Assembly: GCA_964448705.1 (NCBI GenBank)
Contig: CAYUZS010000001.1
Span: forward strand, 114,687 to 178,686
Length of the DNA stretch: 64,000 bases
DNA from: an uncultured Gammaproteobacteria bacterium
GTDB taxonomy: Bacteria > Patescibacteriota > Microgenomatia > UBA12405
Direction of reading: 5' to 3'
The notes under the pieces are model-generated. The model had not been told where the DNA came from. It did no database searches and saw nothing but the letters and a program-made list of their open reading frames with translations. A program made the translations under genes and the position numbers. How positions within the stretch are numbered: position 1 is the first letter of the stretch; each line of letters begins with the position of its first letter. Positions 11,490 to 43,470 of this stretch are shown here, piece after piece.

Positions 11490-11492
11490 AAT

Positions 11493-13010: not shown

Positions 13011-13580
13011 TTATTTTATAAAAAAAACGAAGTTAAAAATTAGACGAATAATGTCCGTCCAAGCGGAAGGAAAGTAAACCAGACTCGATAAAAACCAAAT
13101 TAGGATTCCCAGAATCAGTCCTCCGTAAATATCGATTGGGTAGTGAAAACCTACCAAAACTCTAAATGAAAGCAGGGGAACAACAACTAAAAGATAGATA
13201 TATGGAGACATTACTCCCGAAGTAACTACAAATAAGAAAAAGAAAACTGCCTTAACGGTGTGACCTGAGGGAAAACTACCTGATTTATACCAACTATCGA
13301 CTAAACCGGCGGGAGTACTGTCGTGACGGACAAACATTGGCCGGCGCCAATAAATTTTCGATTTGATTACCCTTTCAACGATTTCGGAAAGAATGCTGGC
13401 AATTAAAATCTGCCAAAAATAATTAGTTTTCTCTCTGATTAACAAAAATGAAATAAAGAAAAGAAAAACCCAAATCAAATAATTTAAAAAAATAAGCACC
13501 GGTTTAAGATATTCACGTTGAGTGAATAATCGAAGATAATCAGTCTTCGGCTGCCAAAAAAATAATTTTGATTTTCTCAT
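13011..13580 (-). CDS. PAP2-family lipid phosphate phosphatase
   Basis: All three PAP2 motifs are present: KIYWRRP (KX6RP), SFPSGH (PSGH) and SFRVLVGFHYPIDI (SRX5HX3D). Confidence 0.8.
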   Translation of the reverse strand: MRKSKLFFWQPKTDYLRLFTQREYLKPVLIFLNYLIWVFLFFISFLLIREKTNYFWQILIASILSEIVERVIKSKIYWRRPMFVRHDSTPAGLVDSWYKSGSFPSGHTVKAVFFFLFVVTSGVMSPYIYLLVVVPLLSFRVLVGFHYPIDIYGGLILGILIWFLSSLVYFPSAWTDIIRLIFNFVFFIK

Positions 13581-13596
13581 GATAAAGTAACTTTAT

Positions 13597-17864: not shown

Positions 17865-18777
17865 AGATAATAGTGATGATCATTAGCCCCCACGAAACAA
17901 CTGACAATAACAGGGGGATATCTGTGGCAATAGTTCTTTCCGGACGCTCCCCTTCCTGCATTTCAAAAATAATCTGACCATACCTCATAATTCCGTAAAT
18001 AACCGGCACGATTGTTACCATGTACCATTTTCGGTCCAACGCAGAAGGAAAGTTTTCTAGAAGATAATTGCTAATGACACCCTCAAAACGAACTTTTTCT
18101 TCAAAAAAAGTAAACATGGAATAAGTCAATAAAGTACAAACTGCAAACATGGTGGTATAAAAATTGAGCAAGGCTTTGCCATAACCGGTCATGGCCGATC
18201 TGGTTTTAGTGCCGGTATTGAAAAGTTCACTGCGGCGTTTTCCACTGGCAATAAAGAGTGATAAGAAAATAACCGTCAACATGATCCAAACGGGAAGATG
18301 ATAACCGGTAGCAATTTCTCCGGCGTAAGCCCGGATAATGAAAAATAAAGAGATGCCGATAATATCAAAAACCGCTTTCTTTTTGAAAATAAATGAATAT
18401 GAATACTGCAATAAAATAAAAACAAAAGAAATTAAAAAGAATCCGGAGTTTACCATCAGCGATATACCCAATCCGGAAAATAAAAGGACAAATACCATAA
18501 TTACGGCCGTATTTACGGATATATCACCATGAGCCAGAGGACGAAACTTTTTAAAAGGATGCTGTTGATCTTTTTTAATATCCAAAAGATCGTTTACCAG
18601 ATATGAGGAAGATGAGAGCAGACAAAAAGTGATGAAAGCCATAAAACTCTGCGAGAAAATTTCGGGGTCAAACAGTTTACCGTTAAGAATAGCAGCAGCA
18701 AAAAGACTGAAGTTTTTAATCCATTGATTTGGACGAAGAGATTTAAATAAGGAAACGAATTTAGTTTTTTTTTCCAT
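17854..18777 (-). CDS. UbiA-family prenyltransferase, decaprenyl-phosphate phosphoribosyltransferase (DPPR synthase)-like
   Basis: RPNQWIKNFSLF plus NDLLDIKKDQQHPFKKFRP (the NDxxDxxxD UbiA motif followed by 'HP.K..RP', as in Rv3806c-like enzymes). 307 aa, about 8 TM segments. Confidence 0.7.
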   Translation of the reverse strand: MEKKTKFVSLFKSLRPNQWIKNFSLFAAAILNGKLFDPEIFSQSFMAFITFCLLSSSSYLVNDLLDIKKDQQHPFKKFRPLAHGDISVNTAVIMVFVLLFSGLGISLMVNSGFFLISFVFILLQYSYSFIFKKKAVFDIIGISLFFIIRAYAGEIATGYHLPVWIMLTVIFLSLFIASGKRRSELFNTGTKTRSAMTGYGKALLNFYTTMFAVCTLLTYSMFTFFEEKVRFEGVISNYLLENFPSALDRKWYMVTIVPVIYGIMRYGQIIFEMQEGERPERTIATDIPLLLSVVSWGLMIITIIYVL

Positions 18778-18781
18778 TACT

Positions 18782-19819
18782 TTACAATAATATCAAGAAA
18801 CCAAGCAAAGTGACAATAACTCCGACAACTCCCAAGACTTGCCCCGGAAGTTCGAATCCGGCACTGGGCAAAATAATTCTGGTAGGACTGGGACCGGAAG
18901 CAAGAGCGGCAGTACCAGTGGGAATCGGAGGTGATGTTGGAGTAATAGTGGGAGTGGAGGATATGACCAAGGTGACAGTGGGGGTGGAAGTATTGGTGGG
19001 TGTAGAAGTCGGCTGAAGAGTACCAGTGGGGGTTGAGGTAGGAATTAATGTTTTTGTCGGAGTAAGAGTTCGGGTGGGAGTAAGAGTTCTGGTCGGAGTT
19101 AAGGAAAGAAATCTAGTTGGAGAAGGAGTGCGGGTGGGAGTTAAGGTTGGAGTAGAAGGCCGGGTGGGAGTTAGAGTGCGGGTGGGAGTAAGAGTTCTGG
19201 TCGGAGTTAAGGAAAGAAATCTAGTTGGAGAAGGAGTGCGGGTGGGAGTTAAGGTTGGAGTAGAAGGCCGGGTGGGAGTATTGGTAGGATTAGTTTGACA
19301 ATTTCGGTCAACAGTACTGATAAAACAATTGTTAGTGTAATCAATTTGCTGAACACCACAATAATTACTATCAAAACAAACAGAGGTGACATTACGGAGA
19401 GTTTCGACATTATCCTGACAACCGCCGGCAGTATCAAATCGATTCGGACATTTATATTTATTAACCACCGAAAGAGTACCACTGGTAGCAGTGATACAAC
19501 GACCAACGATCTGAGCATGGGCTTCTGAACAGGTAAAATTACTAGGATCAGTGCCGCCGCCCTCGGTTGGACAACGACCTGTATCCGGAGTTGTACACTG
19601 CCAGACTCCGGAAGTTGCTGAAGAAAAAGCAATACAAGTACAGAGAAAACCCGTGTTTTTACCGGAAGAATTTTGTTGGCAAGAAGTTCTGCCGACAGGA
19701 CTGCAAGTTTCGTCACCTGTGGCACGATTACGATTGTCCTGATTTTGTCTGACGAGATAAAGTCCCCCAAACATGGACAAAATTAACAAGACTAAACTAA
19801 ATATTCCGTATCTTTTCAT
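18782..19819 (-). CDS. membrane-anchored surface protein with Cys-rich ectodomain and Pro/Thr tandem-repeat linker
   Basis: N-terminal signal anchor, a domain with at least 14 Cys, 36-aa TPTRTLTPTRTLTPTRPSTPTLTPTRTPSPTRFLSL repeats, and a C-terminal hydrophobic segment preceded by ILPSAGFELPG. Confidence 0.5.
   Translation of the reverse strand: MKRYGIFSLVLLILSMFGGLYLVRQNQDNRNRATGDETCSPVGRTSCQQNSSGKNTGFLCTCIAFSSATSGVWQCTTPDTGRCPTEGGGTDPSNFTCSEAHAQIVGRCITATSGTLSVVNKYKCPNRFDTAGGCQDNVETLRNVTSVCFDSNYCGVQQIDYTNNCFISTVDRNCQTNPTNTPTRPSTPTLTPTRTPSPTRFLSLTPTRTLTPTRTLTPTRPSTPTLTPTRTPSPTRFLSLTPTRTLTPTRTLTPTKTLIPTSTPTGTLQPTSTPTNTSTPTVTLVISSTPTITPTSPPIPTGTAALASGPSPTRIILPSAGFELPGQVLGVVGVIVTLLGFLILL
19061..19294. 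repeat. 108-bp tandem repeat (two full copies plus one partial) encoding PT-rich linker
   Basis: The unit gtaagagttctggtcggagttaaggaaagaaatctagttggagaagg... occurs at 19079-19186 and 19187-19294, with a partial copy just upstream. Confidence 0.8.
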
Positions 19820-21129
19820 CTTCTAAGATAATATAGAGAAAATCCAAATAAGATTATTGATAATAATACGAGAAAATAAGTAGGAAAGGAACCACCTGTT
19901 TGATATAAAGTAGAAGAAGTGCTGGAAGGTGTGACCGTTTCTGTAATTGGAGTAATTGAAGGTTTAAGAGTGTCGGTCGGGGTTAAAACAACAGTAGTAG
20001 GAATAACAGCAGTAGTAGGAATAACGGAAGGAACGGCAGTGGGAATAATGGTAGCGGAAGACGAGGCTTGGTATGACGGGCCGTCATCATCTCCGGCCAG
20101 GACAGTGAAATTTCTGGTAACTGTTTCCCAAATACCAGTGGTAGTGTTTTGAACTTTAACGGTGATGGTGTGTTTACCGGGAGCTAAATCGCTTGGCGGC
20201 GACCAATGCCAGGAACCGGAATTATCGGCTAAGGACTCTCCATTAATAACAGTTTCGGAATTAACTTCGATAATAACTTTTGAACTGGCCGGTGCAGTGC
20301 CAAAAAAATCAGGACGGACAACATTCAGTGTTTCGTTATCCTGGGGATTAAAAATATCAACTGATTTTTCCGACTGAACATTGGTAGTATCAACAACTTT
20401 TCCGACAGGTAAGGATGTAACTTGAGGAGCGGCCAGAGAATCACGACCGATAACAATATCGGGAACAGGGTTGTTAAGAGCAGTGCTGTTGGTAACCTGA
20501 GTGGTTGTGCCGTCATCTGAAATAACCACAATGTCTTCGTCAGTGGCATTTTCCGGAGGAATGAACCAGTCTGTTTTAGAATCGTTAAAAGTACTGGCTA
20601 AAGAAACCGACCAGTTTCCGTCAGTGGTGATAAAAGACGAAAGCGGTGAGGCTCCGGGAATGTTGAGATAAACAAGAGCATTAACTGCAGGTTTAGACTC
20701 GGCATCAAAAACTTTTCCCCAAGCCAGATTGGAAGTCGGGAGAGAAGATACCGGATTGGAACCTGTTTCAAAAACAAAGCTGTTTTCGGTATAATTTTGA
20801 CCTCCGCTGATAATGGTGTAATTATAGGAAGTATTGTTTTTAAGGTTCCTAACCTGAAAATAATGAATTTTTGTGGCGGTATCGTTTTTGATATCCGATA
20901 AAAGTTGACCATTAACAGAGAGACTAACCAAACAGGAGGCCGAAGTTAGAAAAGAAATATCTGCGGTACTATTAGTAATATTGGTAACCTGAGAATTTAT
21001 AGGAATACAGTCGCCACTGGCTTTTGAACCCAAACTGGTTCTGTTAGTGGTTAAATAGATGCCGACAAAAAGAGCAATTATTAAAAATATCAGACCTAAG
21101 ATAGTGGGAAAGCGTTTTTCTTTATTCAT
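19816..21129 (-). CDS. Thr/Ser-rich surface protein, N-terminal signal anchor, C-terminal TM with RR tail
   Basis: 437 aa. The C-terminus ..STLYQTGGSFPTYFLVLLSIILFGFSLYYLRR has a motif-hydrophobic-basic-tail layout like a sorting signal. Rich in N-x-T sequons. Confidence 0.45.
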   Translation of the reverse strand: MNKEKRFPTILGLIFLIIALFVGIYLTTNRTSLGSKASGDCIPINSQVTNITNSTADISFLTSASCLVSLSVNGQLLSDIKNDTATKIHYFQVRNLKNNTSYNYTIISGGQNYTENSFVFETGSNPVSSLPTSNLAWGKVFDAESKPAVNALVYLNIPGASPLSSFITTDGNWSVSLASTFNDSKTDWFIPPENATDEDIVVISDDGTTTQVTNSTALNNPVPDIVIGRDSLAAPQVTSLPVGKVVDTTNVQSEKSVDIFNPQDNETLNVVRPDFFGTAPASSKVIIEVNSETVINGESLADNSGSWHWSPPSDLAPGKHTITVKVQNTTTGIWETVTRNFTVLAGDDDGPSYQASSSATIIPTAVPSVIPTTAVIPTTVVLTPTDTLKPSITPITETVTPSSTSSTLYQTGGSFPTYFLVLLSIILFGFSLYYLRR

Positions 21130-21350
21130 GGGAAGATCGATTCAGCCGAATAATATTTTCGGTTTTGAATTTCATCGAGGGTTTTAGTATCTAGATTGGG
21201 ATTAATCGGTTTTAAAATGTCACTGGTTTTGATTTCATTTGAAGGTCCGATTAAGTTGGAATAACTTTGTTGAACAATAAAAACAAAAATAGCCAAAAAA
21301 GTGAAAATACTGACTAATAGAAGATAGGTAGTAATTTTATTTTTGATCAT
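21126..21350 (-). CDS. small membrane protein (hypothetical)
   Basis: Track ORF 21126..21443, internal start MIKNKITTYLLLVSIFTFLAIF preferred to limit overlap with the upstream gene. One TM segment. Confidence 0.25.
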   Translation of the reverse strand: MIKNKITTYLLLVSIFTFLAIFVFIVQQSYSNLIGPSNEIKTSDILKPINPNLDTKTLDEIQNRKYYSAESIFP

Positions 21351-22002
21351 TTGTTTTTGGAGACCAATAATAAAAATTAGCAGTAAAGTCCGTGGAAACA
21401 GATCCGGATGGGGCGGCACTTTCGGTTGACTCTGAGGCGGCAATACCTCTGGTTACTCCAACACCGATGGAATTGATATTAATCAGACGACGATTTTTCA
21501 GCAATTCGGAAACTAATTTAACTGCAGAATTAAACTGACCTTCAATATTAAGAGATATAGTGTAAATTCCGACATTGGGATCAATACTCTTTTTGGAATT
21601 ATTTTGGAAACCGTACTGTAAGGTGGAAATATTTAAACCGGCATCCTGGCCGCTTTTTTGAATTTGATTGGCAGCCTGATAAAATTGGGGAGTATCCGGA
21701 AGACTGTCATTAACAATTTGATAATGTTCCTGAACTTCGGAAAAAACCTCCTGAGCAGCAACAACCTTGTCGATTTTAGTTTTTAGCTGGGTTTTAAGAA
21801 TTTGCTTTGATTTTATTTCTCCAACCAAAGAAGAAATAGTTAAGGCGGTGGGGCGGATGGCAAAAATTAAGAAGAAAATAATTAAAACGAAAGTAGCGGT
21901 TATTTCCAATGATTTAAGAAAACGCTGATTCTCCTGTTTTTTCCTAACATAGTCCATGAGAGGCCGGAGCCGGTTCATTTGGTTGCTGATAATGGGGTTC
22001 AT
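21337..22002 (-). CDS. PilO-like bitopic membrane protein (type IV pilus alignment-complex-like)
   Basis: Short cytoplasmic N-terminus, one TM segment, then a coiled-coil and a C-terminal domain. 4-nt overlap with the PilN-like gene upstream. Confidence 0.4.
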   Translation of the reverse strand: MNPIISNQMNRLRPLMDYVRKKQENQRFLKSLEITATFVLIIFFLIFAIRPTALTISSLVGEIKSKQILKTQLKTKIDKVVAAQEVFSEVQEHYQIVNDSLPDTPQFYQAANQIQKSGQDAGLNISTLQYGFQNNSKKSIDPNVGIYTISLNIEGQFNSAVKLVSELLKNRRLININSIGVGVTRGIAASESTESAAPSGSVSTDFTANFYYWSPKTNDQK

Positions 22003-22562
22003 TTTTTTACTCCTGAAAAAACGAGAGAAAGATTAACATGGTATTGATTTTCCCGGGCCTTTTTTTCGATGGTCTGAATATCAACAGAAGAGATATTGGG
22101 ATTAACAATAAGATTAGTTATAAAGTTGACGATAGAACTTTCCTGATATGTGGACAAACTGACTTCGGCATTAACATCCCCTTCTTCATTCAGACCGACA
22201 CTTAAACCGGTGAAGGTAATATCCAAAGGAGTACTTTCGGTTAGTGTTTGGATTTTGTCTTGATATTGCGGTTGATTCTCGTAATAGGTTTTAATAAGTG
22301 TAAGCCGTTTTTGTAGTTGTGAATATTCATTTTCAAAACTACTGGTACTTTCGAGGATAGCTTTTTGCTGTCTTACGGCTTCTGAGAGATCGGAATTGAT
22401 ACGATCCAGCCAAAACCGGGAAATAAAAGCACCAACAACAATTAGCTCGGTAAAAACGATGACATAGCGACCAATAGTGGACAGCCATCTGATTATCCGA
22501 GCCGAAAGAGAGTCGGCATTTTCCTCATTAGGCAAGAGGGAAATCTCTTTTTTGGCAGGCAT
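21999..22562 (-). CDS. PilN-like protein
   Basis: The N-terminal cytoplasmic ISLLPNEE matches the conserved PilN 'INLLP' motif. It is followed by one TM segment and a periplasmic coiled-coil. Confidence 0.5.
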   Translation of the reverse strand: MPAKKEISLLPNEENADSLSARIIRWLSTIGRYVIVFTELIVVGAFISRFWLDRINSDLSEAVRQQKAILESTSSFENEYSQLQKRLTLIKTYYENQPQYQDKIQTLTESTPLDITFTGLSVGLNEEGDVNAEVSLSTYQESSIVNFITNLIVNPNISSVDIQTIEKKARENQYHVNLSLVFSGVKK

Positions 22563-22581
22563 AATAACAGTATATATAAAT

Positions 22582-24192
22582 TTAGCGGGAAAGAAAACGT
22601 TTCAACTTTTCAAAATAGCGAAGATAGTCTTTATATTCTTCAATTGACAACTGTTTGGATAAAATTGCAAAGACGATAAAACCAATCAAAGAAGAGATAC
22701 TGGAGAGAATAATTAAATAGAAAGTTTTTGAGGTGTCGAAGACGAAAACATCAAGGAACCTGAGGCTTAACCATGAAGCGATTCCCATGCCGATTGAGGC
22801 CAGCAATATTTTGAAGAAATGATAGAAAGTTTTGTCCCAACCTGAACCATCAACCACGCGGATGAAAAAATAAAATAAACCAAGACCTTGTGTCAGATTT
22901 CCCAAGGAGGCACTGACAGCCAAGCCAACAATACCAAGATCGGTGAAATTAATCAAAAGATAGCTGGTAACGATATTAACTATCAAAGAAACCGCTGAAA
23001 TTTTTAGAGGTGTCCGGGTATCGTGTAAGGCATAAAATGAACGAATTAAAATCTGAATCACAGCTTGAGATACAATTGCCGGGGTAAGATAGGCCAAAGT
23101 TTTAGCAGTTAACAAGGTAGCCGCCCAGGGAAATTGTTTAGCACCAAAAGCAATACGAATAATGGCGATGCGATGAATCAGAACTAAAGTGGTGATAGGG
23201 GCGGCAATATATAAACTTTGAGTCAGTGTTTTTCGAACAGTATCGCGAAAAATAGTAAGTTCATTCCGGGCTATATTTTTGGAGAGAATGGGCAGAGAAG
23301 CCTGGCCAATAGTGGTGCCAAAGATGCGGCTGGGAAGATACATGATTTGCATGGCCAGATTGAGCAAGGAAATTGAACCGGCGGCCAGGGAGCTGGCAAA
23401 AAATAAAGTAACCGTGTTTTCAATTTCACCCAAGCCGAGAGATAAAGTCCGGGGAATCATAAGCCTGATTATTTCTTTAACCCCTTCCAAACCGGAGCTA
23501 ATAGAAAAAGAATATTTGAAACCAAATTTTTTAATCAAAGGAATTTGAATCGCCAAATGAAAAAATGCACCGACAACAGTACCGTAAGTTACCCCATAGA
23601 TACCGAAAATCGGAGCCAGGGTAAAAATACTGAGAATGATAAAAAGGTTGTAGACAATCGGAGAAAGTGAAGGAACAATAAACATCTGATGAACCTGGAG
23701 AATACCGGTTAAAAAATTACTGACCAGAAAAAATATTTGGGCAATCAACAAAATTCTCGTTAGACTGGCCATTAAATCCAGTTGATACGGAGTAAAACCA
23801 CTGGCAATAATTTCGGAAAAAGGTCTGGCAAAAATAAATACCACCAAAGAGACAAAGATGAATAAAATAAGCAGTAAATTTATTACCGTGGAAGCGATCT
23901 GATACGCTTTCTTTTCGTCTTTATGAAGATAACTACTAAAAACCGGGATAAACGAGGCTGAGAGAGCTCCGGTTACCAGTAATTTAAAAATTAAGTCCGG
24001 GAGTCGAAAGGCGGCATTGTAGGCATCCAGATCCAAAACGCAACAATTGAAAAAATGGGCGTAGAGAAATTTGCTCCGAAAAAGACCAAGCAAAGCTGAA
24101 ATGGCAAAAGTAATTCCTAAAACAAGACTGGCGGAAAAAATACTATTCTGTTTTCTGGTTCCAAGGGAGGTTAACAGAAATTTAAGGTTCAT
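22582..24192 (-). CDS. murJ: MOP-superfamily flippase, MurJ/MviN-like lipid II flippase
   Basis: 536 aa with about 14 TM segments. Size and N-terminal pattern fit MurJ, but a Wzx-type polysaccharide flippase cannot be excluded. Confidence 0.55.
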   Translation of the reverse strand: MNLKFLLTSLGTRKQNSIFSASLVLGITFAISALLGLFRSKFLYAHFFNCCVLDLDAYNAAFRLPDLIFKLLVTGALSASFIPVFSSYLHKDEKKAYQIASTVINLLLILFIFVSLVVFIFARPFSEIIASGFTPYQLDLMASLTRILLIAQIFFLVSNFLTGILQVHQMFIVPSLSPIVYNLFIILSIFTLAPIFGIYGVTYGTVVGAFFHLAIQIPLIKKFGFKYSFSISSGLEGVKEIIRLMIPRTLSLGLGEIENTVTLFFASSLAAGSISLLNLAMQIMYLPSRIFGTTIGQASLPILSKNIARNELTIFRDTVRKTLTQSLYIAAPITTLVLIHRIAIIRIAFGAKQFPWAATLLTAKTLAYLTPAIVSQAVIQILIRSFYALHDTRTPLKISAVSLIVNIVTSYLLINFTDLGIVGLAVSASLGNLTQGLGLFYFFIRVVDGSGWDKTFYHFFKILLASIGMGIASWLSLRFLDVFVFDTSKTFYLIILSSISSLIGFIVFAILSKQLSIEEYKDYLRYFEKLKRFLSR

Positions 24193-28897: not shown

Positions 28898-29461
28898 ATG
28901 AATAAATTAATCCAAAAACCTTTACCGTATTCCTATGAAGCTCTGGAGCCGGTAATCAGCCGAAAAATTATGGAGCTTCACTATAGTAAACATCATGCTG
29001 CTTATGTAGCTGCGGCGAATGCAGCTTTGGAAAAACCGGAAAAAAATCGTGAAGTGATGCGTGATTTTAGTTTTAATGCCAACGGGGCGATGATGCATGA
29101 AATATTTTGGGAGAACATGAGAGCATCAAAAGAGGAAAATCTTCCCGGCGAAAATTTAAGCCGAATATTAACTGAAAACTTCGGCAGTGTTGAAAACTTC
29201 AAATCACAATTTTCAACCGCAGCGGTTGGGGTAGAAGGATCCGGATGGGCAGTATTATGGAAAACACCATTAGGACTAACTGTGGGACAGCTGGAAAAAC
29301 ATAATTTACTAGCGATAAACGGAGCAACGCCAATACTGGTGTTGGATGTCTGGGAGCATTCCTATTATCTTGACTACTTAAACGACCGTAAAAGCTACGT
29401 GGAAAAATGGTGGCAGGTGGTTAATTGGGAAGATGTTGAGAAACGATTGAATCAAGGATAG
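28898..29461 (+). CDS. sodA: Fe/Mn superoxide dismutase
   Basis: ..ELHYSKHHAAYV.. and DVWEHSYYLDY.. (metal ligands H, H, D, H). The track ORF begins at 28775, but the SOD N-terminus aligns with MNKLIQKPLPYSYEALEP at 28898. Confidence 0.9.
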   Translation: MNKLIQKPLPYSYEALEPVISRKIMELHYSKHHAAYVAAANAALEKPEKNREVMRDFSFNANGAMMHEIFWENMRASKEENLPGENLSRILTENFGSVENFKSQFSTAAVGVEGSGWAVLWKTPLGLTVGQLEKHNLLAINGATPILVLDVWEHSYYLDYLNDRKSYVEKWWQVVNWEDVEKRLNQG

Positions 29462-29951
29462 TGTTTATTTCTTCTACAGTAGACGAAGAGGGATCATAAG
29501 AACCTGTCAGCGTATAGACTGTCTGGTTGCGAAGATAGACTCTTTGAATAACGGAAACTGGTTTGTTACTGTTGCGATAGCTACCGGAAAGTAAGCGAAG
29601 ATTATCCTGAAGACTGTCCTGAGAATACTTTAATGAAGGTAAAGTTGATTTGGCACCGGCGATCAAAGAATTAGTATATTTTTCAAAAGTAGTGTCGGCA
29701 GGCAATTCGGATTTGGCCATCACAATTTGGGGTTTCAAACCGGAATCGACTGTTTTCTCGTACTTCAAAACAACATCGGCGGTATTGTCCACTTTTTGCC
29801 AATTGTTAGGAAGATTCTCTGCCACTTGAGTCGGTGTCGGGGTTAAAGAATCGGAAATTTTAAAAACTCCCGGCTTTTTGACAATTAAGACGACGATCAG
29901 AATAAATAAAACGATGAGAGCGGGAACAACCAGTTTTTTATTGAGTTTCAT
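29421..29951 (-). CDS. N-terminally anchored extracytoplasmic protein (hypothetical), downstream of sortase gene
   Basis: One N-terminal TM segment (LVVPALIVLFILIVVLIV) then a roughly 150-aa domain. 4-nt gap after the sortase gene. Its 3' end overlaps the convergent sodA by 41 nt. Confidence 0.4.
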   Translation of the reverse strand: MKLNKKLVVPALIVLFILIVVLIVKKPGVFKISDSLTPTPTQVAENLPNNWQKVDNTADVVLKYEKTVDSGLKPQIVMAKSELPADTTFEKYTNSLIAGAKSTLPSLKYSQDSLQDNLRLLSGSYRNSNKPVSVIQRVYLRNQTVYTLTGSYDPSSSTVEEINTILDSIVSQHLPN

Positions 29952-29973
29952 TTTGGTATTAGTTTTCATATTT

Positions 29974-31461
29974 TTAATTTAATGGAACAGCTTTAACCAG
30001 AATACGATGATCAGGCTGAGTGTAGCTGCAGGTCATTAAAATAATTTCACCGGGAGTAGAAGCGGTGACAGCCGAGACATCGTCTTGAGAAACAAAATCG
30101 ATCTTGGTGACCACATATTCGGTTAACAAACCATGACGATCAACAATTATTTTTTCACCGGAGTGAAGTTTAAAAAGAGAACCGAAAACATCACCAGCGT
30201 TATGACCGTAATATAACTGAACACCATTTAAGTTTGTAGATAAAACTTCATGACTGCCGACAGTTAATTCGTCGCCAACTTTTTGCGGCAAATAAACCGG
30301 CTGATTAAGATTGATAGCGGGAATCGAAATGGTATGGTCGGCATCGAGGACATTTCCTGAAGGAAGTTTTTCCGAAGTATAGGACACTTCTGCAGTGTTA
30401 ACCAAAGAGGTAGAAGTACCTAAAACCTGACCGCCATAAGATTCTTTAATGCCTGAAACTAAAGGATTGTAATTAGTCGAGGCACCCAGAACCTGAAGCG
30501 ATCCGGCACCCTGGTTACTACAGACGACATTTGAAGGGCTACCACCGCGGCAGCCGTTTTGAGCCTGAACATAAAAACAGTATTTGCCACCTGGATTGAG
30601 GGCGGATACCACATAAGTAGTAACATCACCAACATTGGGATCACCATAGAGATAATTGCCAATAGACGGACCGTAGGCTACTACATAATTAGTGTGTGTA
30701 CCTGGGGAATGATCCCAAGTTAACCTAACCTTGCCGCCACCGAGAGCAACGACACGAAGATTTCCGGGAACTCCAGGATCGGAATTGTTACAGACCGGTG
30801 CTGAATTTGAACCGGAACTTGAATTGTCACCTGAATTATTGTTGGAAGGCTCTGAGGTAGGAACCGGAGTTTCTTCCGATGGAGTGGGAGTATTTTCTGA
30901 TGGAGTCGGTGTTTCCTCCGGAGGAGTGACGGTTACAGAAGGAGTAACAACGACGGTAGTTGTAGGAACCGGTGAGGTGGTCGGTGTCGGTTTGATACAA
31001 CGACAGTCTTCATAAGAAACTTTATCATCATACTGATAGGTGGTTTTGGAACAGTTATTGCCAATTTTGGTATAACCTGAAGGACAACCTGAAGGAGAGG
31101 TGGTCTCATCACAAGAAGCTTTCCAGCCTTTATCTCTACGCCATTCCCAACAATTTGGTTCCACATTTTTGTCGTTGCGATGACAGCGCTGATTCCAATT
31201 TCCACTATTTTGATAATGGTAGTTAGTCGGACAGAGAGGATTGGCCTCAGTTGTTATTTCTTTTCGGCATTTATTTTCATCTCCGTATTCGTCAAAACCA
31301 CGGGGACATCTTTGTTCAGTATCACACTTCCAAACTTCACCAGGTTTACAACCAAAATGAGCCTCAGTGACAACCGGTCGGGAGGAAATATATCCAAATG
31401 CAAAAGTTATAAGTGTAATGAGGGGTATCAATATGATTGAAGAACGTGATAGTTTTTTCAT
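29974..31461 (-). CDS. sortase-domain protein with long N-terminal Cys-rich / PT-linker / FN3-like ectodomain
   Basis: The C-terminal 90 aa LYYGHNAGDVFGSLFKL...IILMTCSYTQPDHRILVKA carry the sortase catalytic triad (His, TLxTC Cys, Arg). Upstream are a domain with at least 20 Cys, TPTPSE repeats and a ..KYCFYVQAQNGC FN3-like module. The track ORF starts with TTG at 31497; the ATG at 31461 (MKKLSRSSIIL signal anchor) is preferred. Confidence 0.7.
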   Translation of the reverse strand: MKKLSRSSIILIPLITLITFAFGYISSRPVVTEAHFGCKPGEVWKCDTEQRCPRGFDEYGDENKCRKEITTEANPLCPTNYHYQNSGNWNQRCHRNDKNVEPNCWEWRRDKGWKASCDETTSPSGCPSGYTKIGNNCSKTTYQYDDKVSYEDCRCIKPTPTTSPVPTTTVVVTPSVTVTPPEETPTPSENTPTPSEETPVPTSEPSNNNSGDNSSSGSNSAPVCNNSDPGVPGNLRVVALGGGKVRLTWDHSPGTHTNYVVAYGPSIGNYLYGDPNVGDVTTYVVSALNPGGKYCFYVQAQNGCRGGSPSNVVCSNQGAGSLQVLGASTNYNPLVSGIKESYGGQVLGTSTSLVNTAEVSYTSEKLPSGNVLDADHTISIPAINLNQPVYLPQKVGDELTVGSHEVLSTNLNGVQLYYGHNAGDVFGSLFKLHSGEKIIVDRHGLLTEYVVTKIDFVSQDDVSAVTASTPGEIILMTCSYTQPDHRILVKAVPLN

Positions 31462-31464
31462 AAT

Positions 31465-31480
31465 GTAAGGTATTATACCA
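31465..31480 (-). promoter_or_regulatory. extended -10 promoter (TGgTATAAT) placed about 10 nt before the sortase ATG (leaderless/short leader)
   Basis: Minus-strand gatggtataatacc. The hexamer is the reverse complement of 31472-31477 and the TG lies 1 nt upstream. Confidence 0.4.
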
Positions 31481-31560
31481 TCATGTGTAAAAAACAATAC
31501 AGGCTTATAGTAATTTAAATAACAATAAATATATACGGATTTTTAGGTTATAATCAGCTT

Positions 31561-35519: not shown

Positions 35520-37934
35520 ATGAAAAAAATATCCAGAATACTAATGATTACCGCCTTGATTGTTCATCAATTCGGGTGGCCATTAGCAGTTTGGTCACAA
35601 AATATTGAAAATACACCGACACCAACCGTAACCGCTGCTCCAACAATTGTCGAAACAAACGATGAAACAACAACTCCGACACCAACCCCAACAGAAACAG
35701 AAACAACCGCAACCTCGACACCAACATCGATAATATCCGAAACTCCAACACCAACTCCAACCATAAATCCGGATGAAATCATTGGGATAGAATTACAGGC
35801 GCCAACACCAGAACCGGAGGCAACTATAATCGTCGTGGTAAGCAACGAGGCCACAGTCGGGCAGCAAAGTGATACCAGTGCCGACAGTGGGAACAATACG
35901 ATTGCGATAACCCCAACCGGAGCACCGGTTGTAAATAATCCGACAGAATCGACGATTATCACTGATAAAGCAATTGCTCTGGCTAATATTGTGAATGCTG
36001 TCAATACCAATAGTTTTAATTCCAACGTAAAAATTTATTTATTAAATAATTTAAGCGGAGCAATCGGCCAGGTCGACCTGAATACGGCCTGGAATCTTTT
36101 AAACAGCAATGGGAACCAGATGAATGTCTTAACAGTGGATACCACCGGACAAAATAATCAAATATTAATCGATAATTTAGGAATTATTCAAAATGAAGTT
36201 GAGGTGCAGGCCAACAGCGGAAACAACCAAATAAACGGTGGAGATCAGGGAGTAATTTTTACCGGTAACGCCTATGCATTGGCAAATATTTTAAATATTC
36301 TTAATGTTAATGTTTATAATTCCAGTCTGTTTGCGGGAATAATCAATGTTGACGGCAGTACTTTAGGAGACATCGTTTTGCCAAATCCGGAATGGTTTTT
36401 AAACCAGAGAGAAACATCATTAAATATCAACGGCACAATCGATAACGAAGCTTTAATAAACAGCCAAGTTTCAACAGAAACCGATAGTGGAAATAACGGG
36501 ATAGAAACTGACGGCAGCGGATTGATTATAACCGGAAATTCCCAATCTTCGACTAATGTTTTGACCATGGCAAACATGAACACGACAAATAATAATCAAT
36601 TATTGGTGGGACTGAATGTGCTGGGAAATTGGAGCGGAAATATTTATAATTTTTACGGATTAGGCACAGCGGTTAACGGAAGCAGCAACAATTGGTTTCT
36701 AATTAACGACCATAACGAGGATACGATAGATGAGGAAATTAATACCAGTGTTAATAATGCGGCGGCAATTTCGAATTTGGTTTTAGCTAGGGCAATGAGC
36801 GGTCAAAACCAAATAACAGCCGGTAACGGTGGAGTTATCCAAACAGGAAATGACTGGGCCCTGGCCAATGTCACTAATCTAGCCAACTTGAATATTTTTG
36901 ACAGTAATTGGTTTTATATGACGATCAATGTCATCGGAGACTGGGGAGGAAATGTGATTTTTGCCTACCCTGATTTGACATTATCACTTAACTTGACGAA
37001 CGAGGAATTGAGAGTCGATCAGGAAACTGAATTGTTAGTTAATTATGCAAATGTCGGCTATGACGACACCAATGATAAAAACCAGATCGAGATAGAATTA
37101 CCCGGTAATCTTCAGTTTTTGAATGATAACAGCGGACTCCCCTTATCAAGGCAAGGCAACCGACTGATATGGCAAGTTAATAATATGCCGGCTAAAAGCA
37201 GTCGGAGTTTCTATATAAAAGTTAAATTGAATTCAGAAACTGCGTGGAAATTAGTGAAGACGGCAATGGCGGCAGAAGCGACAGCCAGAAGTGAAGTGGT
37301 GGTTAACGGAGAAATATCAACGACTAAAACGGAAGTAAGTACTGATAATAATAGTGCCTATGCTGTGGCTTATGTAAATGTTAATGGAAACGAGACTACT
37401 AACGAACTACTGCCAAAATTGATGATTTCGGAAAAAAATAATGTTAACAACTGGGTTTATAAAAATGATGTGATTTCTTTTGAAATCAATGCCAAAAATG
37501 AAGGAGAAGCGACGGCTTACAACACTTTTTTAATTCAAAAAATATTTGATATCAACGGGAAATTATTAACATCGAACAAAATTAAACTGGGAAATGTGGT
37601 GGTGGGTAAATCGGGAAAAGTTACATTCGGTCTGCCGATTAATTTTAATCTCAATGGTCAGCAAAGATTATTTTCCCAAACAGAAATGACCGGATACAGC
37701 GAACAAGGCCAGGAAATTATTTCCAATATTTCCGAATCTACATTTACGGTTAAGTTTTCAGAAATAAAAAGTCAGGAAGAAAATAAACTCGAAATCCAAG
37801 CAACAGAGACTTCAGGTGAAGTTCTGGGTGATAAAACAGAAACCAAAAAGGTAACCTGGCCCTACTTAATGATGTTTGTTACTTCCTCCGGCTGGATTAT
37901 CAGACAAACAAATCGATGGCGTATAAAAAAATAG
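35520..37934 (+). CDS. large secreted/anchored surface protein with PT-linker and internal Asn-rich repeats (DUF11/CARDB-like C-terminal domains possible)
   Basis: Signal anchor, a TPTPTPTETET linker, four or more roughly 40-aa repeats (..SGNNQI.GG.QGVI.TGN.YALANILNILN.N...S), a C-terminal beta-rich domain and a basic RWRIKK tail. 804 aa. Confidence 0.55.
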   Translation: MKKISRILMITALIVHQFGWPLAVWSQNIENTPTPTVTAAPTIVETNDETTTPTPTPTETETTATSTPTSIISETPTPTPTINPDEIIGIELQAPTPEPEATIIVVVSNEATVGQQSDTSADSGNNTIAITPTGAPVVNNPTESTIITDKAIALANIVNAVNTNSFNSNVKIYLLNNLSGAIGQVDLNTAWNLLNSNGNQMNVLTVDTTGQNNQILIDNLGIIQNEVEVQANSGNNQINGGDQGVIFTGNAYALANILNILNVNVYNSSLFAGIINVDGSTLGDIVLPNPEWFLNQRETSLNINGTIDNEALINSQVSTETDSGNNGIETDGSGLIITGNSQSSTNVLTMANMNTTNNNQLLVGLNVLGNWSGNIYNFYGLGTAVNGSSNNWFLINDHNEDTIDEEINTSVNNAAAISNLVLARAMSGQNQITAGNGGVIQTGNDWALANVTNLANLNIFDSNWFYMTINVIGDWGGNVIFAYPDLTLSLNLTNEELRVDQETELLVNYANVGYDDTNDKNQIEIELPGNLQFLNDNSGLPLSRQGNRLIWQVNNMPAKSSRSFYIKVKLNSETAWKLVKTAMAAEATARSEVVVNGEISTTKTEVSTDNNSAYAVAYVNVNGNETTNELLPKLMISEKNNVNNWVYKNDVISFEINAKNEGEATAYNTFLIQKIFDINGKLLTSNKIKLGNVVVGKSGKVTFGLPINFNLNGQQRLFSQTEMTGYSEQGQEIISNISESTFTVKFSEIKSQEENKLEIQATETSGEVLGDKTETKKVTWPYLMMFVTSSGWIIRQTNRWRIKK

Positions 37935-40516: not shown

Positions 40517-41758
40517 TCAGGATTTTATTTTTTTATAAATCCAAAAAGGAATCAAAAAGGAAACGAGATCACCAATAAAGTAATAGTTACACAACCATTT
40601 TTGTCCAAAACAACAACTGTTTTTGTTGATGAAAAAATCAATGGCAAAAGCGATGGCGGAAATTATAAAAACAAATAACCAATGTCCGGACAAATTTACC
40701 AGAATCAAATTAATAATTAAGGCGATAAGAAATATCAGCGGTAAAAATTTGACGGTGCAGGAGATGTCCGTTTCACCTAAAACTTGTCCCTCTGAGGACA
40801 AACTGGAAACGGAGGCGGACGATGGGTTTTGGTCGGAAGTGTTGGTACCCAACACCTGAGTCTCCAGACCGGTAGGAACGGTGGCAGCAGCAACGATGTT
40901 TGATCCAGGGTTAAGACAATATTCCGGAGTTCTTTCTCCCGGCATACAACCGTTTAAACTACGGACATAAAAACAATATTGGGCGCCGGGGGTTAATCCA
41001 CGGACAGTGTAATGGTCATCTTTTCCGATATCAGGAGAACCATATTGATAGACTCCCGGCGAGGTACCAAAAGCAATTAAATATCCGGTATATGATGGTG
41101 ATGTGGTGTTATTCCAATGAAGAGTAACAGTGCCGCCATCATATTCGGTGGCATATAATCCGGTGGGAGCCAAAGGAGCAGGGTTGGTGCATTGAGAAGG
41201 TCCTGGACCGGAAGTACCGCCGTCGGATGTCCCTAATACATTACCCGAAACATCGGTACTATTTTCATCGCATTCAAATTGATACTTGATATCAAAACGA
41301 GAACTGAGATTTTGATAATTATTATCAGCGGATTGATCCAATAATATTGTCCAAAGATAACTATTTTTTTTGTTTTTATTAACGTGTCCGAGAGATAAAC
41401 TAGGCTGGGCGGAATTGAGCAGATCACTTAAACGATAATGAGAAATATTAAGATCGTTTTCATTATTGGTACCGGTGATATCTAAAAATATTTTTTGGGA
41501 AAGAAGATCTAAATTTGAATCAGCAGAGACAGCTTTTAAAGTTAAGTTACAGGCACCTGTGCGATTATTATCAACAAAAAATTTTTGAGAAGTAGTGTAT
41601 CCGGGGTAAATATTGGCTTCATTAAATATGGGAAGGTTAGGAGAAACAGTACATTCAGAATCCCCGCTGTTACAGGTAATCGTAATATCATTGCCGGCAA
41701 AAACAAGTGAAGGAAAAAAGCCGAATGAAATTATGAGGAGAAAGAGAATTTTTTTCAT
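40517..41758 (-). CDS. surface protein: TasA/camelysin-like N-domain + FN3-like module + C-terminal multi-TM anchor
   Basis: Signal ..SLVFAGNDITIT resembles the SipW-cognate signal (AAFNDIKS in TasA). FN3-like GGTVTLHWNN...YCFYVRSLNGC module. Hydrophobic C-terminal 80 aa. Confidence 0.45.
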   Translation of the reverse strand: MKKILFLLIISFGFFPSLVFAGNDITITCNSGDSECTVSPNLPIFNEANIYPGYTTSQKFFVDNNRTGACNLTLKAVSADSNLDLLSQKIFLDITGTNNENDLNISHYRLSDLLNSAQPSLSLGHVNKNKKNSYLWTILLDQSADNNYQNLSSRFDIKYQFECDENSTDVSGNVLGTSDGGTSGPGPSQCTNPAPLAPTGLYATEYDGGTVTLHWNNTTSPSYTGYLIAFGTSPGVYQYGSPDIGKDDHYTVRGLTPGAQYCFYVRSLNGCMPGERTPEYCLNPGSNIVAAATVPTGLETQVLGTNTSDQNPSSASVSSLSSEGQVLGETDISCTVKFLPLIFLIALIINLILVNLSGHWLFVFIISAIAFAIDFFINKNSCCFGQKWLCNYYFIGDLVSFLIPFWIYKKIKS

Positions 41759-43470
41759 TAATAGACAAATGATTTCGTAACTTGGGTATCTCCACTAAGG
41801 TTAACGGTGATGGTGGAACCGGGAGCAAGATCGTCTTGGACACAAACCCCACCGGAGGAACAAGTGCCGAGATATAAAATCTGTGAAAATTCGGAATCAA
41901 CAATCTTGTCGGCGGTGATCTTGCCGAATAGACCTTTTTGAATTCCGTTGGTAAAATACAAAACTTCATAATCAGACGGTTTCGAAAGGTTGTCTATTTT
42001 TAAAGTTATTTCATTTTTAGAATGATTGCTGGTGAGACTTATTAAAGGATCGTTACCTGCCTCAGTTATCAATTCCGGAACATCAGTATTTTCAAATTCT
42101 ATAATGGCCGAATTTTCGATATTACCAGCCTTGTCGACAGCATGGGCGATGATTTTAAATTTGCCTAAAGGAATGGTCATTGGTTTTATCTCATAAGACC
42201 AATTGGAGGTGCCATCGGCCAGGACACGGGTAACAGACTCGCTGCCGTGAACCCAAGAACTGCCATTCCAAAAAAGATTCACATTTTGCCGGTAAATAGA
42301 AAGTTCGATATGATCCAACTGAGAGTTGTCCGAAGCGGTACCTTCAACTTTGCCATTCCATAACCAAACGATGGGAAAGTTAACATCGTTGTCGTGGTCG
42401 GAATTCCAGGGTTTAGTGATGGTGCTGACCGGTAATGTTTTATCGTAAGTAATGGAACACTCATGAGACCAGGCGGAAACATTTCCGGTGGTGTCGTATG
42501 CCCTAACTTTAAAAGTATGAAGACCTTCACCCTGATTAAAAACACCGGTATATTGTGAACGGGTGACAAAAGTAGACCAGGTGCCAGTACCGCCGCCGGC
42601 TTTAGGATATTCCAGATAATATTCATATTTCAAAATCCCCTGACTACTGGCAGAATCGTCCCAATCGGGAGTAATGGTGTAACTGTTGGTGTAGCCATTA
42701 CAGGCAATGTTGGGGTTTGACCAATGAAGATTGGAGGGAGTGGAAGGTTTAGCAAAATCGGCAGTAGAAATAGTGATACCACTGACGACAACAGTATCGG
42801 AAAATAGTGCTTTGGCTTGGGTAATGTGATTAACACCTAAAATGGCGGCAGTAAATAAAAAGAAGAAGATTAAAGATTTTAAATTGGTTTTAGATTTTGG
42901 TTTAATTTTAATTTTAGTGCCAGCGGTTTCGAGTTTTTGAGCGACTTTGCGATTGACTTCGTCATCAATAGCTTTTTTGATATTAAAAATTTGACTGATA
43001 ATAAAAATTAAAGCAGGAATACCAATAATTACAGCAAAACCTACAGGTTGACGGAGAAGAGCGGCTAAAGAACCAAGATAAGGGATGGCAAAAAAGTAGA
43101 CACCTTTGACACCAACATCCTGAACATCCCAAGCGTCAATATCCTTATTGTTGTCCCCTTTTGTCTTGAATAAAAGCGGATCGGTAGACGAAATAGAATT
43201 GACGCGATGAAGAATAGTGTCTTGGGAATTGCTGGGAGAAGTGAAGGCAATAATATCACCGGTTTTAATATTTTTAGGATCAACTGTTTTAATAAAAGCA
43301 ACAGAGCCAGTTTTAATAGTTGGTTCCATAGAACCACTGACAACGACAAAAGATTTGGGAATATTTTTAAACGGTAGCTTAGGGGAAATAACTACGAAAA
43401 GCAGGCACAACAAAACTATGAATGCGACCCATTCGATTGCTTTTAAAATTGTTTCAGACTTTTTGAGCAT
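41758..43470 (-). CDS. sipW: SipW-type (archaeal-type, S26B) signal peptidase I fused to a C-terminal TasA-like-signal-bearing ectodomain
   Basis: N-terminal TM, then VVVSGSMEPTIKTG (catalytic Ser box) and GDIIAFTSP. A second TM segment follows at about aa 190, then ITQAKALFSDTVVVSGITIST (a second SipW-cognate cleavage motif) and a roughly 350-aa beta-rich domain. Confidence 0.7.
   Translation of the reverse strand: MLKKSETILKAIEWVAFIVLLCLLFVVISPKLPFKNIPKSFVVVSGSMEPTIKTGSVAFIKTVDPKNIKTGDIIAFTSPSNSQDTILHRVNSISSTDPLLFKTKGDNNKDIDAWDVQDVGVKGVYFFAIPYLGSLAALLRQPVGFAVIIGIPALIFIISQIFNIKKAIDDEVNRKVAQKLETAGTKIKIKPKSKTNLKSLIFFFLFTAAILGVNHITQAKALFSDTVVVSGITISTADFAKPSTPSNLHWSNPNIACNGYTNSYTITPDWDDSASSQGILKYEYYLEYPKAGGGTGTWSTFVTRSQYTGVFNQGEGLHTFKVRAYDTTGNVSAWSHECSITYDKTLPVSTITKPWNSDHDNDVNFPIVWLWNGKVEGTASDNSQLDHIELSIYRQNVNLFWNGSSWVHGSESVTRVLADGTSNWSYEIKPMTIPLGKFKIIAHAVDKAGNIENSAIIEFENTDVPELITEAGNDPLISLTSNHSKNEITLKIDNLSKPSDYEVLYFTNGIQKGLFGKITADKIVDSEFSQILYLGTCSSGGVCVQDDLAPGSTITVNLSGDTQVTKSFVY

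Follow-up and report, generated by a model that had tools for sequence, protein, structure and literature searches.

A multi-domain sortase of Shapirobacteria type with a conserved, sorting-motif-like pentapeptide ahead of its catalytic domain

The 64,000-nucleotide stretch of contig CAYUZS010000001.1 analysed here (positions 114,687 to 178,686; hereafter the window) encodes on its minus strand a sortase of unusual build. A Cys-rich head, a Pro/Thr-rich stalk and a fibronectin type III (FN3) domain precede a conserved junction, which carries a pentapeptide resembling a sorting motif, and the catalytic domain follows at the C-terminus. That this is a genuine multi-domain sortase, built on the chassis of a substrate-like surface protein, is very probable. 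We further propose that the protein belongs to a lineage-specific multi-domain type of Candidatus Shapirobacteria, in which the pentapeptide would serve as a tethered pseudo-substrate. For this whole package we estimate a probability of about 0.38. The gene and its parts are as follows (TM, transmembrane segment; AF2, AlphaFold2; pLDDT, predicted local distance difference test).

29974..31461, minus strand: multi-domain sortase gene, 495 residues from ATG (open reading frame list, Pfam Sortase and fn3, build common to 35 homologues)
31360..31461, minus strand: N-terminal hydrophobic segment, residues 1-34 (hydropathy; AF2 helix over residues 2-26)
30982..31359, minus strand: Cys-rich head, residues 35-160 (12 Cys, CPxG[FY]...C hairpins)
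30802..30981, minus strand: Pro/Thr/Ser-rich stalk, residues 161-220 (TPTPSE repeats; disordered in AF2)
30508..30801, minus strand: FN3 domain with four extra Cys, residues 221-318 (Pfam fn3, AF2, Foldseek match to FN3con)
30331..30507, minus strand: conserved junction, residues 319-377, QVLGASTNYNPLVSGIKESYGGQVLGTSTS-LVNTA-EVSYTSE-KLPSGN-VLDADHT
30391..30405, minus strand: LVNTA, LPXTG-like pentapeptide, residues 353-357 (family pattern L-[M/A]-x-T-A, 41 sortases)
30352..30369, minus strand: KLPSGN, second near-sorting motif, residues 365-370 (kept in 38 of 41 sortases)
29977..30330, minus strand: sortase catalytic domain, residues 378-495 (Pfam, AF2 pLDDT ~90, Foldseek)

The mechanical open reading frame (ORF) spans 29974..31497 on the minus strand and gives 507 residues from a TTG at 31497. 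Starting at the ATG at 31461 yields 495 residues beginning with MKKLSRSS. Homologues begin at the equivalent position, and this ATG is the most likely start. The Pfam Sortase profile (PF04203; MEROPS C60) matched residues 378-492 with 54.5 bits against a cut-off of 26.6 (E=1.3e-14), spanning profile positions 1-123 of 125, and it also matched all 35 homologues. The catalytic triad, composed of His420 (in YGHN), Cys478 (in ILMTC) and Arg486, is invariant in these proteins, and the family consensus around the catalytic Cys reads VLxTCS. The first-pass annotation, which had named the protein a sortase from the pattern H...TLxTC...R, was therefore correct in this respect. Nine residues past Arg486 the chain stops, without a C-terminal TM.

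Structure prediction gave a consistent picture. In an AF2 model built on the homologue alignment, the catalytic domain (residues 371-495) reached a pLDDT of ~90. In a Foldseek search with this model, solved sortases of classes A, C and E matched to a similar degree (E ~1e-8, probability 1.0, ~140 columns), with Bacillus anthracis SrtA as the second-best match, and AF2 and Foldseek together recovered the eight-stranded beta-barrel fold of sortases. A sequence-profile search of the PDB agreed with Foldseek in returning sortases, class C being among the best. Both checks that had been suggested for the identity of the protein, sortase profiles and structure prediction, thus gave a positive answer. 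The catalytic domain indeed lies at the C-terminus, as had been proposed, but its length is ~115-140 residues (378-492 by Pfam, 355-495 by AF2) rather than 90. By profile, triad and fold, the ORF encodes a genuine sortase. Its putative function, judged from the family, is that of a transpeptidase acting on C-terminal sorting signals and a wall precursor.

None of the curated NCBIfam class models (cut-offs 140-166 bits) was passed, so the class assignment that had been asked of these models was not obtained. The window sortase scored 21.0 bits against 165 for class D and 23.3 bits against 140 for the SrtD LPxTATN model, and the models for classes A, B, E and F gave no match at E<0.1. The general model TIGR01076 (sortase_fam) was not reached either (35.0 against 39.35 bits); two relatives, P0013 (42.5 bits) and P0037 (42.0 bits), do pass it. 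Over NCBIfam, the PDB profile search and Foldseek, no sortase class was favoured. The best class score was that for class C, and class C structures were among the best matches in Foldseek and in the PDB profile search. A class C-like, pilus-polymerising sortase that strings FN3/Ig subunits such as protein B (see below) into fibres was therefore considered; a segment N-terminal to the catalytic domain and possibly lying over the active site would likewise be a class C trait. We regard this as very improbable. With 28.9 bits, the class C score stays far below the cut-off of 160, structures of classes A and E fit about as well as those of class C, and no DP[WFY] lid motif is present anywhere in the protein. 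A C-terminal TM is absent from all homologues, and the sortase gene does not sit among pilin-like genes, proteins A and B lying 9 kb off in an envelope-biogenesis cluster.

Homologues were searched over 5.8 billion proteins, with 35 hits containing both an FN3 and a Sortase domain (46-100% identity). Where named, these are 'sortase' from Candidatus Shapirobacteria or Microgenomates. Pfam already lists the combination fn3 plus Sortase for them, and databases call them 'sortase'. Scanning a single genome for each GTDB species added eight more loci with the same build, nearly all from Shapirobacteria. In all ~40 relatives were collected, nearly all of them from Candidatus Shapirobacteria/Microgenomates; some lack the FN3 domain, and all have the junction. 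In what follows, invariance of Cys, triad and junction residues refers to the 35 homologues, the pentapeptide table to 41 sortases and hydropathy to 33 full-length homologues. Four contigs with Shapirobacteria-type genes (L015, L018, L020, L022) are labelled 'uncultured Gammaproteobacteria' in TPA (third-party annotation) assemblies, which is probably a taxonomic mislabel.

The regions of the protein differ strongly in conservation. Mean pairwise identity among the homologues is 27% in the head, 67% in the FN3 domain, 65% in the junction (residues 319-377) and 55% in the catalytic domain. At the N-terminus, hydropathy revealed a single hydrophobic segment in all 33 homologues, which also lack a C-terminal TM. 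It represents a signal anchor or else a Sec signal peptide. In most members the N-terminal segment closes near position 32 with V-x-A, after which acidic residues follow; the window protein reads T-E-A|H there. The V-x-A resembles a signal-peptidase site, and cleavage would be expected from the -3/-1 rule.

The head is the hypervariable part, its 126 reference residues being spread over 477 alignment columns. The whole protein has 17 Cys, 12 of them in residues 38-155, four in or around the FN3 domain and one in the active site (C478); without the catalytic one, an even number is left for disulfides. The figure of more than 20 N-terminal Cys given earlier is thus too high. The more general observation stands: for a sortase, the N-terminal region is unusually long, disulfide-rich and FN3-containing, as judged from the Cys positions and Pfam fn3, and the TPTPSE linker is present at residues 181-206. 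AF2 returned pLDDT values below 50 for the head and had no confidence in the stalk. No similarity was found between this head and that of protein A (18782..19819). Among orthologues, the heads are swapped for unrelated Cys-rich modules, namely TSP_1 (5), TSP1_spondin (4) and DUF4215 (2), or for His-rich or short segments. Of note, TSP_1 repeats (WxxWxxxSxC...CG...G.Q.R.C; Pfam E as low as 6e-14) and Cys-rich DUF4215 repeats form part of bacterial sortase heads, where they take the place of the window-type head in homologues P0011, P0012, P0017, P0019-P0024, P0026, P0031 and P0032. Behind the stalk, Pfam fn3 (PF00041) matched residues 232-313 (E=5e-10, 39.8 bits against a cut-off of 25). This domain was modelled over residues 222-318 with a pLDDT of ~90, and its Foldseek match is FN3con, an artificial consensus FN3. 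C224, C295, C304 and C314 are invariant, and two disulfides are predicted for the domain.

The relation to a surface protein became apparent from P0036, a match of the first homologue search that has no sortase domain. P0036 is collinear with residues 2-329 of the sortase (E=6e-36), from the signal peptide through head elements (CPANYDVQNSGNWNQRCHR against CPTNYHYQNSGNWNQRCHR), the Pro/Thr stalk and the four-Cys FN3 domain to QVLGAST, and the head element CPxNYxxQNSGNWNQRCHR is common to both proteins. The C-terminus of P0036 reads VLGAST, LGTTG-AF, hydrophobic span, KLPSKRI, and a tandem unit further upstream in the protein closes with VLGTST-LADTG, a TM and a K-rich tail. P0036 carries LGTTG or LADTG plus TM plus basic tail at the place equivalent to LVNTA in the sortase. 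On contig L023, P0036 (13..1875) is followed 9 nucleotides downstream by a gene for a conventional N-anchored sortase of 186 residues (1885..2445). In this other setting, the head-stalk-FN3-VLG protein thus carries a classical sorting signal and is encoded beside a sortase. The comparison shows homology of the N-terminal two-thirds of the window sortase (residues 2-329) with a surface protein of substrate type. We also considered the window gene as a direct fusion of this gene pair. This was rejected: the short sortase has 27% identity over 81 residues to the window catalytic domain, and the L023 pair is therefore not the direct ancestor. The two FN3-VLGxST-LxxTG-TM-basic-tail copies of P0036 stand within one ORF, the first signal lying mid-protein; this may reflect two genes fused in the gene call or a true tandem protein.

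The junction connects this substrate-like part with the enzyme. Within it L325, G326, L347, G348, T356, E358, K365, L366, P367 and N370 are invariant. With 65% identity against 55% in the catalytic domain, the junction is more strongly constrained than the enzyme domain itself. The family layout is VLGxST(E)-L-[M/A]-x-T-A-E, 6-7 residues, KLPSGN, ~8 residues and then the first catalytic strand (ISIPxI), which places the pentapeptide ~20 residues ahead of that strand. Over the 41 sortases, position 1 is Leu in 39, position 2 is Met or Ala in 34, position 3 is occupied by ten different residues, position 4 is Thr without exception, and position 5 is Ala in 37 and Gly in two. On the level of the sequence, this order of conserved, conserved, variable, conserved and conserved positions is the logic of LPXTG, LAXTG and LPXTA motifs. 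Divergent members have nearer-canonical variants, LAGTG (P0017), LAKTG (L015), LPFTA (L017) and FPATD (P0037). KLPSGN in turn resembles the LPS[A]G of protein A minus the residue at the scissile position. Orthologous sortases without an FN3 domain (P0037/L024, L016 and L017) retain both the junction and the catalytic domain.

A motif of the form [G/Q]-[V/I]-L-G-x-[S/T]-T follows the Cys-bearing FN3 domain in several families of Microgenomates surface proteins, often shortly before a C-terminal TM. In the sortase it occurs at residues 323-326 and 345-348 (30418..30495), in ORF 40517..41758 at residues 173-176, 301-304 and 325-328, and it is also present in the relatives P0036, P0038, P0202 and P0208. 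It is invariant in two families although it lies within low-confidence segments of the AF2 models. Its possible roles are those of an extended sorting element or of a site for processing or glycosylation. QVLG in protein A was tried as a further instance and rejected, since orthologues read QALS or QILT there.

The substrates of such an enzyme would be expected to end in a pentapeptide followed by a hydrophobic span. In the 64-kb window, only two ORFs do so, the adjacent genes of proteins A and B, and the window contains one sortase.

19816..21129, minus strand: protein B, candidate substrate, with signal/TM, FN3-like and Big_13 domains (Pfam), Pro/Thr stalk and C-terminal sorting signal; 270 homologues
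19819..19908, minus strand: sorting signal of B, LYQTG-GSFPT-TM-RR (homologue tails)
18782..19819, minus strand: protein A, candidate substrate, with signal/TM, variable Cys-rich head, long Pro/Thr-repeat stalk and LPSAG plus TM
18785..18871, minus strand: sorting signal of A, LPSAG-FELPGQ-TM(…LILL), no basic tail (kept in four genomes)
9402..24192, minus strand: envelope cluster with DUF2298, three PMT_2-type glycosyltransferases, PAP2, a UbiA prenyltransferase, PilN/PilO-like genes and MurJ

For protein B, 115 of the 120 best homologues have tails of the form [V/P/I/M]-P-x-[T/S/A]-G-N-x-x-P-T, TM, K/R. Among these 115, the Pro is found in 113 and the Gly in 111, and Tyr replaces Pro only in the copy of the window and in the relative closest to it. 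The LPXTG anchor model TIGR01167 scored protein B of the window with 14.2 bits, against a cut-off of 15.9. Orthologues of protein A occupy the same position in L005-L007, have unrelated heads and end in GPSPTRI[IV]LP[SNQ][AS]G[FV][ED]FPxQ-TM-LILL. Thus LP[SNQ][AS]G plus TM is kept in four of four genomes, with Ala or Ser rather than Thr at position 4, no basic tail and no NCBIfam match. At family level, the tails of both proteins appear to be genuine LPXTG-type signals. The first-pass annotation had already picked out LYQTGG and ILPSAG as candidate sorting signals, and these tails are real; its description of them as weak and non-LPXTG seems not to hold for the families, which have xPxTG-xxPT-TM-K/R and LPxAG-TM. 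The search it had recommended for the true sorting motif, run within the window, returned A and B, whose homologues gave the family motifs xPxTG-N-xx-PT and LPxAG. From these motifs and the single sortase of the 64 kb, the sortase would process and anchor A and B, which are encoded 9 kb away from it. Their genes belong to a conserved envelope cluster in the order MurJ, PilN/PilO-like, a small ORF, B, A, UbiA, several PMT_2 and PAP2. Enzymes of this cluster may glycosylate the Pro/Thr-rich stalks of the sortase and of proteins A and B. A strong AT skew (~0.26) at 10-18 kb coincides with the membrane-protein genes of the cluster.

Based on these observations, we propose the following mechanism. 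The sortase would be exported by its N-terminal Sec signal, either as a cleavable peptide or as a signal anchor. It would then display, in this order, the hypervariable disulfide-rich head, the Pro/Thr stalk, the disulfide-stapled FN3 domain, the junction and a minimal His/Cys/Arg catalytic domain. Its substrates would be surface proteins with LPXTG-type C-terminal signals, such as B (xPxTG-N-xx-PT-TM-K/R) and A (LPxAG-TM). Cleavage would take place after Thr or Ala, and the substrate would be joined to a cell-wall precursor. The enzyme itself may have arisen when the TM and tail of a substrate-type protein were replaced by a catalytic domain, L-[M/A]-x-T-A being kept. The retained pentapeptide would be a tethered pseudo-substrate, filling or gating the active site up to the arrival of a genuine substrate or of the wall precursor. 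A lid-like interaction of the pentapeptide with the active site is suggested by analogy. Class C sortases have an N-terminal lid over the active site, and in B. anthracis SrtA an N-terminal appendage contacts it. At positions 2 and 5 the motif of the window sortase departs from those of the local candidate substrates, and therefore it may bind without turnover. In a more general form, the protein would be a substrate-enzyme chimera, a displayed surface protein with its sorting signal remodelled into a sortase domain, whose retained pentapeptide engages the active site of the same or a neighbouring chain, as a switch or as a self-cleavage site. We consider this somewhat doubtful.

Several points weigh against the proposed mechanism. 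AF2 gives ~60 for residues 351-370 and below 50 for residues 319-350, and it predicts no stable docked conformation. The pentapeptide has Met or Ala instead of Pro at position 2 and Ala instead of Gly at position 5, whereas A and B have both Pro and Gly. L..T[AG] is a short pattern, and T356 and E358 could be kept for reasons other than substrate mimicry, the whole junction being conserved. The pairing of enzyme and substrates is deduced from the motifs and from the single sortase within 64 kb. P0036, the sole unfused relative, is one metagenomic protein on a 2.7-kb contig, and with 27% identity of the neighbouring sortase a direct gene fusion is not demonstrated. If V-x-A is cleaved, the enzyme would be left without a membrane anchor, which is hard to square with an action on membrane-held substrates.

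The last point is turned into an advantage when the protein is regarded as a self-sorting surface protein. Cleavage after T356, in cis or between molecules, would transfer its own head, stalk and FN3 domain to the wall, so that a likely cleavable signal peptide would not leave the protein without an anchor. What is displayed in the end would be a variable, adhesin-like head, with the enzyme domain taking the place of the TM and tail of a sorting signal. In line with this, residues 1-329 are homologous to a protein that is displayed through a normal sorting signal, the pentapeptide lies at the equivalent position with an invariant Thr and a variable third residue, some members read LAKTG, LAGTG or LPFTA, and a hypervariable head fits an exposed ligand-binding or antigenic part. 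However, most members have L-M-x-T-A, unlike the P/G-containing motifs of A and B. Moreover, if each enzyme molecule acted once, no obvious sortase would be left for A and B, and the tether of ~20 residues to strand 1 is possibly too short for a reach in cis. We consider self-sorting unlikely.

The conservation of the junction also bears on a simpler explanation, namely a simple housekeeping sortase mounted on a long spacer. Head, stalk and FN3 domain would then set the height of the catalytic domain in a thick or glycosylated envelope, the junction would be a structural linker, and its likeness to a sorting motif would be a leftover of ancestry or a coincidence. FN3 domains and Pro/Thr-rich stalks are common spacers in bacterial surface proteins, orthologues do without the FN3 domain, and a PMT_2-rich glycosylation cluster lies nearby. 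The unconfident docking of the junction by AF2 and the shortness of L..T[AG] count in the same direction. It would be unusual, though, for a passive linker to be better conserved than the catalytic domain, and the pentapeptide shows a sorting-motif-like conservation pattern over 41 sequences. A spacer also leaves the hypervariable Cys-rich head and its homology to a displayed protein unexplained. We regard this explanation as doubtful, though clearly less so than self-sorting, and favour the pseudo-substrate mechanism.

As had been observed in the first pass, the FN3 module of the sortase recurs in two other proteins of the window, the product of ORF 40517..41758 and, at its C-terminus, an S8 protease.

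40769..41200, minus strand: paralogous FN3 plus VLG tail, residues 187-330 of ORF 40517..41758 (BLAST, hhalign, Pfam fn3)
52575..52874, minus strand: C-terminal FN3 of the 1160-residue S8 protease (52491..55973), residues 1034-1133 (Pfam fn3; BLAST)

BLAST aligned the sortase with ORF 40517..41758 at 36% identity over 143 residues (E=1e-19), and this ORF with one of the sortase homologues at 43% over 141 residues. Pfam fn3 matches the ORF with E=1.7e-7 (31.8 bits against a cut-off of 25). The likeness extends past the FN3 domain into the VLGxST tail, and hhalign of the two families gave E=1.7e-45 over 132 columns. Leu and Gly of VLG are invariant in both families (L303 and G304 in the 35 orthologues of ORF 40517..41758). 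The FN3 domain of the S8 protease (fn3 E=1e-9, 39.0 bits against 25) is more distant, at 29% over 94 residues from that of the sortase (E=8e-6); it lacks the VLG tail as well as two of the four Cys. The protease itself matched PF00082 Peptidase_S8 with 159.7 bits (E=1.3e-46) and has a fervidolysin-like prodomain. A fourth copy of the module was sought in the 64-kb window, with none found.

The recurrence is thus real, but the pattern that had been derived for the module is for the most part (W..Y.V.YG..L.PG..Y.F.V...N) the generic FN3 consensus. The sortase FN3 is 37% identical to FN3con and 38% to its paralogue in the window. When a profile of the three window modules was run against 1.84 billion representatives, it returned 48,045 proteins led by giant multi-FN3 proteins. 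A number of this order indicates that the core is an ordinary FN3. By sequence, the lineage-specific features are the four Cys and the VLGxST tail, and not the FN3 core. The FN3+VLG unit does recur in Microgenomates, as in P0202 and P0208, which end in a TM and a basic tail.

The first-pass annotation had suggested that the module is a targeting or assembly domain shared by a sortase/protease/fibre secretome. A Cys-bearing FN3 uniting the sortase, the S8 protease and ORF 40517..41758 on the cell surface would be in keeping with three secreted proteins in one 64-kb window that share an FN3 subtype and conserved Cys positions, with the strong hhalign score for FN3 plus VLG tail in the sortase and 413-residue families, and with the unit in further Microgenomates surface proteins. 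In contrast, syntenic orthologous sortases (P0037/L024, L016, L017) do without FN3, and its absence argues against an FN3 that is essential to sortase function or serves as a common targeting device. The three genes are not clustered but lie 9-22 kb apart with different conserved neighbourhoods, the protease FN3 is similar at the generic level, the three-module profile matches 48,045 proteins, and no partner or ligand is indicated. We judge a common targeting domain quite improbable.

ORF 40517..41758 encodes 413 residues and belongs to a family of 35 orthologues in four parts: a signal peptide, a beta-sandwich of ~140 residues, FN3+VLG and a conserved three-helix membrane region with the motif CC..G..WLC.YFWIGN. 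Its FN3 domain was modelled with a pLDDT of ~90 and matched FN3con in Foldseek. The label TasA-like that had been given to this protein could not be upheld, as no TasA/camelysin (Peptidase_M73) match was found in Pfam, NCBIfam, the PDB profile search or Foldseek; the only hint is an adjoining S26 signal peptidase (41758..43470, minus strand, 570 residues; Ig-like Big_13/Big_3_2), whose gene overlaps the start of 40517..41758 by 1 nucleotide. This pair of S26 peptidase and FN3-protein genes is like sipW-tasA in arrangement, without similarity to TasA. The proteins encoded just downstream of 413-residue-like genes in other genomes (L019 10663..11538; L020 10654..11565; L021 3923..4846; L022 444..1415) end in RL[S/T/A]GS[S/A][T/A]G, a TM and [K/R]QGxIF. 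From their sequence, these tails may represent another conserved C-terminal anchoring signal. In the window, no counterpart of such a gene stands beside 40517..41758.

The surroundings of the sortase gene are conserved. Genes for pyruvate:ferredoxin oxidoreductase, a divergent methyltransferase, the sortase, a TM protein of 171-182 residues and, on the other strand, a superoxide dismutase recur in synteny. In the window the TM protein is the following gene.

29421..29969, minus strand: downstream partner gene, 182 residues, with N-terminal TM, TPTP linker and globular domain; starts 4 nucleotides past the sortase stop

The partner gene also directly follows the sortase in L001 (11635..12150) and L003 (11542..12057), with 42-49% identity. 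The protein gave a weak DcrB match alone (E=0.0018) and no relative in the PDB; it may be a partner or an anchor of the sortase. A plus-strand ORF at 35520..37934 (804 residues) had no Pfam match at E<=0.01.

Bacteria of the candidate phyla radiation (CPR) presumably rely on surface contacts to their hosts. The substrates, motifs and regulation of their sortases lack study, and the locus offers a concrete enzyme with a set of candidate substrates. With the motifs xPxTG-N-xx-PT and LPxAG, the set of wall-anchored surface proteins of the lineage can be predicted. The hypervariable head, homologous to a displayed protein, suggests that the enzyme is itself part of the exposed, fast-evolving surface. 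If the motif mimic controls or self-processes the enzyme, this would be a new sortase mechanism, with regulation or self-display undescribed for any class, and an intramolecular mimic of this kind could be used in sortase-based protein engineering. We searched the literature on CPR sortase architecture, FN3-sortase fusions and sortase pseudo-substrates and found only passing mentions of CPR sortases, with no description of the window architecture, the FN3-sortase combination or an internal sorting motif. The annotation of the family as sortase is already known; the architecture and the substrate-motif look-alike are not described in the literature searched. The CPR Pam pilus was considered as a related system and rejected, being a different, chaperone-based system. 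Almost all Microgenomates have sortases, and a machinery for disulfide formation is encoded in CPR genomes (PMC6744442).

Compared with known systems, the window sortase shares the fold and the His/Cys/Arg triad with the housekeeping sortases of Gram-positive bacteria (class A, such as SrtA of Staphylococcus aureus and B. anthracis, and class E, which is LAXTG-specific). It is also like them in having an N-terminal hydrophobic segment, no C-terminal TM and likely substrates of the type pentapeptide plus TM (plus basic tail). In contrast to these enzymes, ~340 extra residues (head, Pro/Thr stalk, FN3 and junction) stand between the signal or anchor and the catalytic domain, all curated class cut-offs are missed, the N-terminus resembles a cleavable one (V-x-A), and an LPXTG-like pentapeptide is present internally. 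Class C sortases are alike as top structural matches and, by analogy, in the proposed same-chain N-terminal pseudo-substrate over the active site. However, the window sortase has no DP[WFY] lid, C-terminal TM or pilin cluster, and its candidate lid mimics the sorting pentapeptide itself. FN3-spacer enzymes such as chitinase A1, cellulosomal enzymes and subtilases with a C-terminal FN3 similarly have FN3 domains between or after catalytic modules, together with low-complexity linkers; the FN3 domain of the window differs in its two predicted disulfides, its VLGxST tail and its attachment to a sortase. The closest likeness in build is to the P0036-type protein of L023, which is collinear over residues 2-329. 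Its C-terminus, however, holds a classical sorting signal where the window protein has the catalytic domain, and the sortase at that locus is a separate, N-anchored protein of 186 residues, only distantly related to the window domain.

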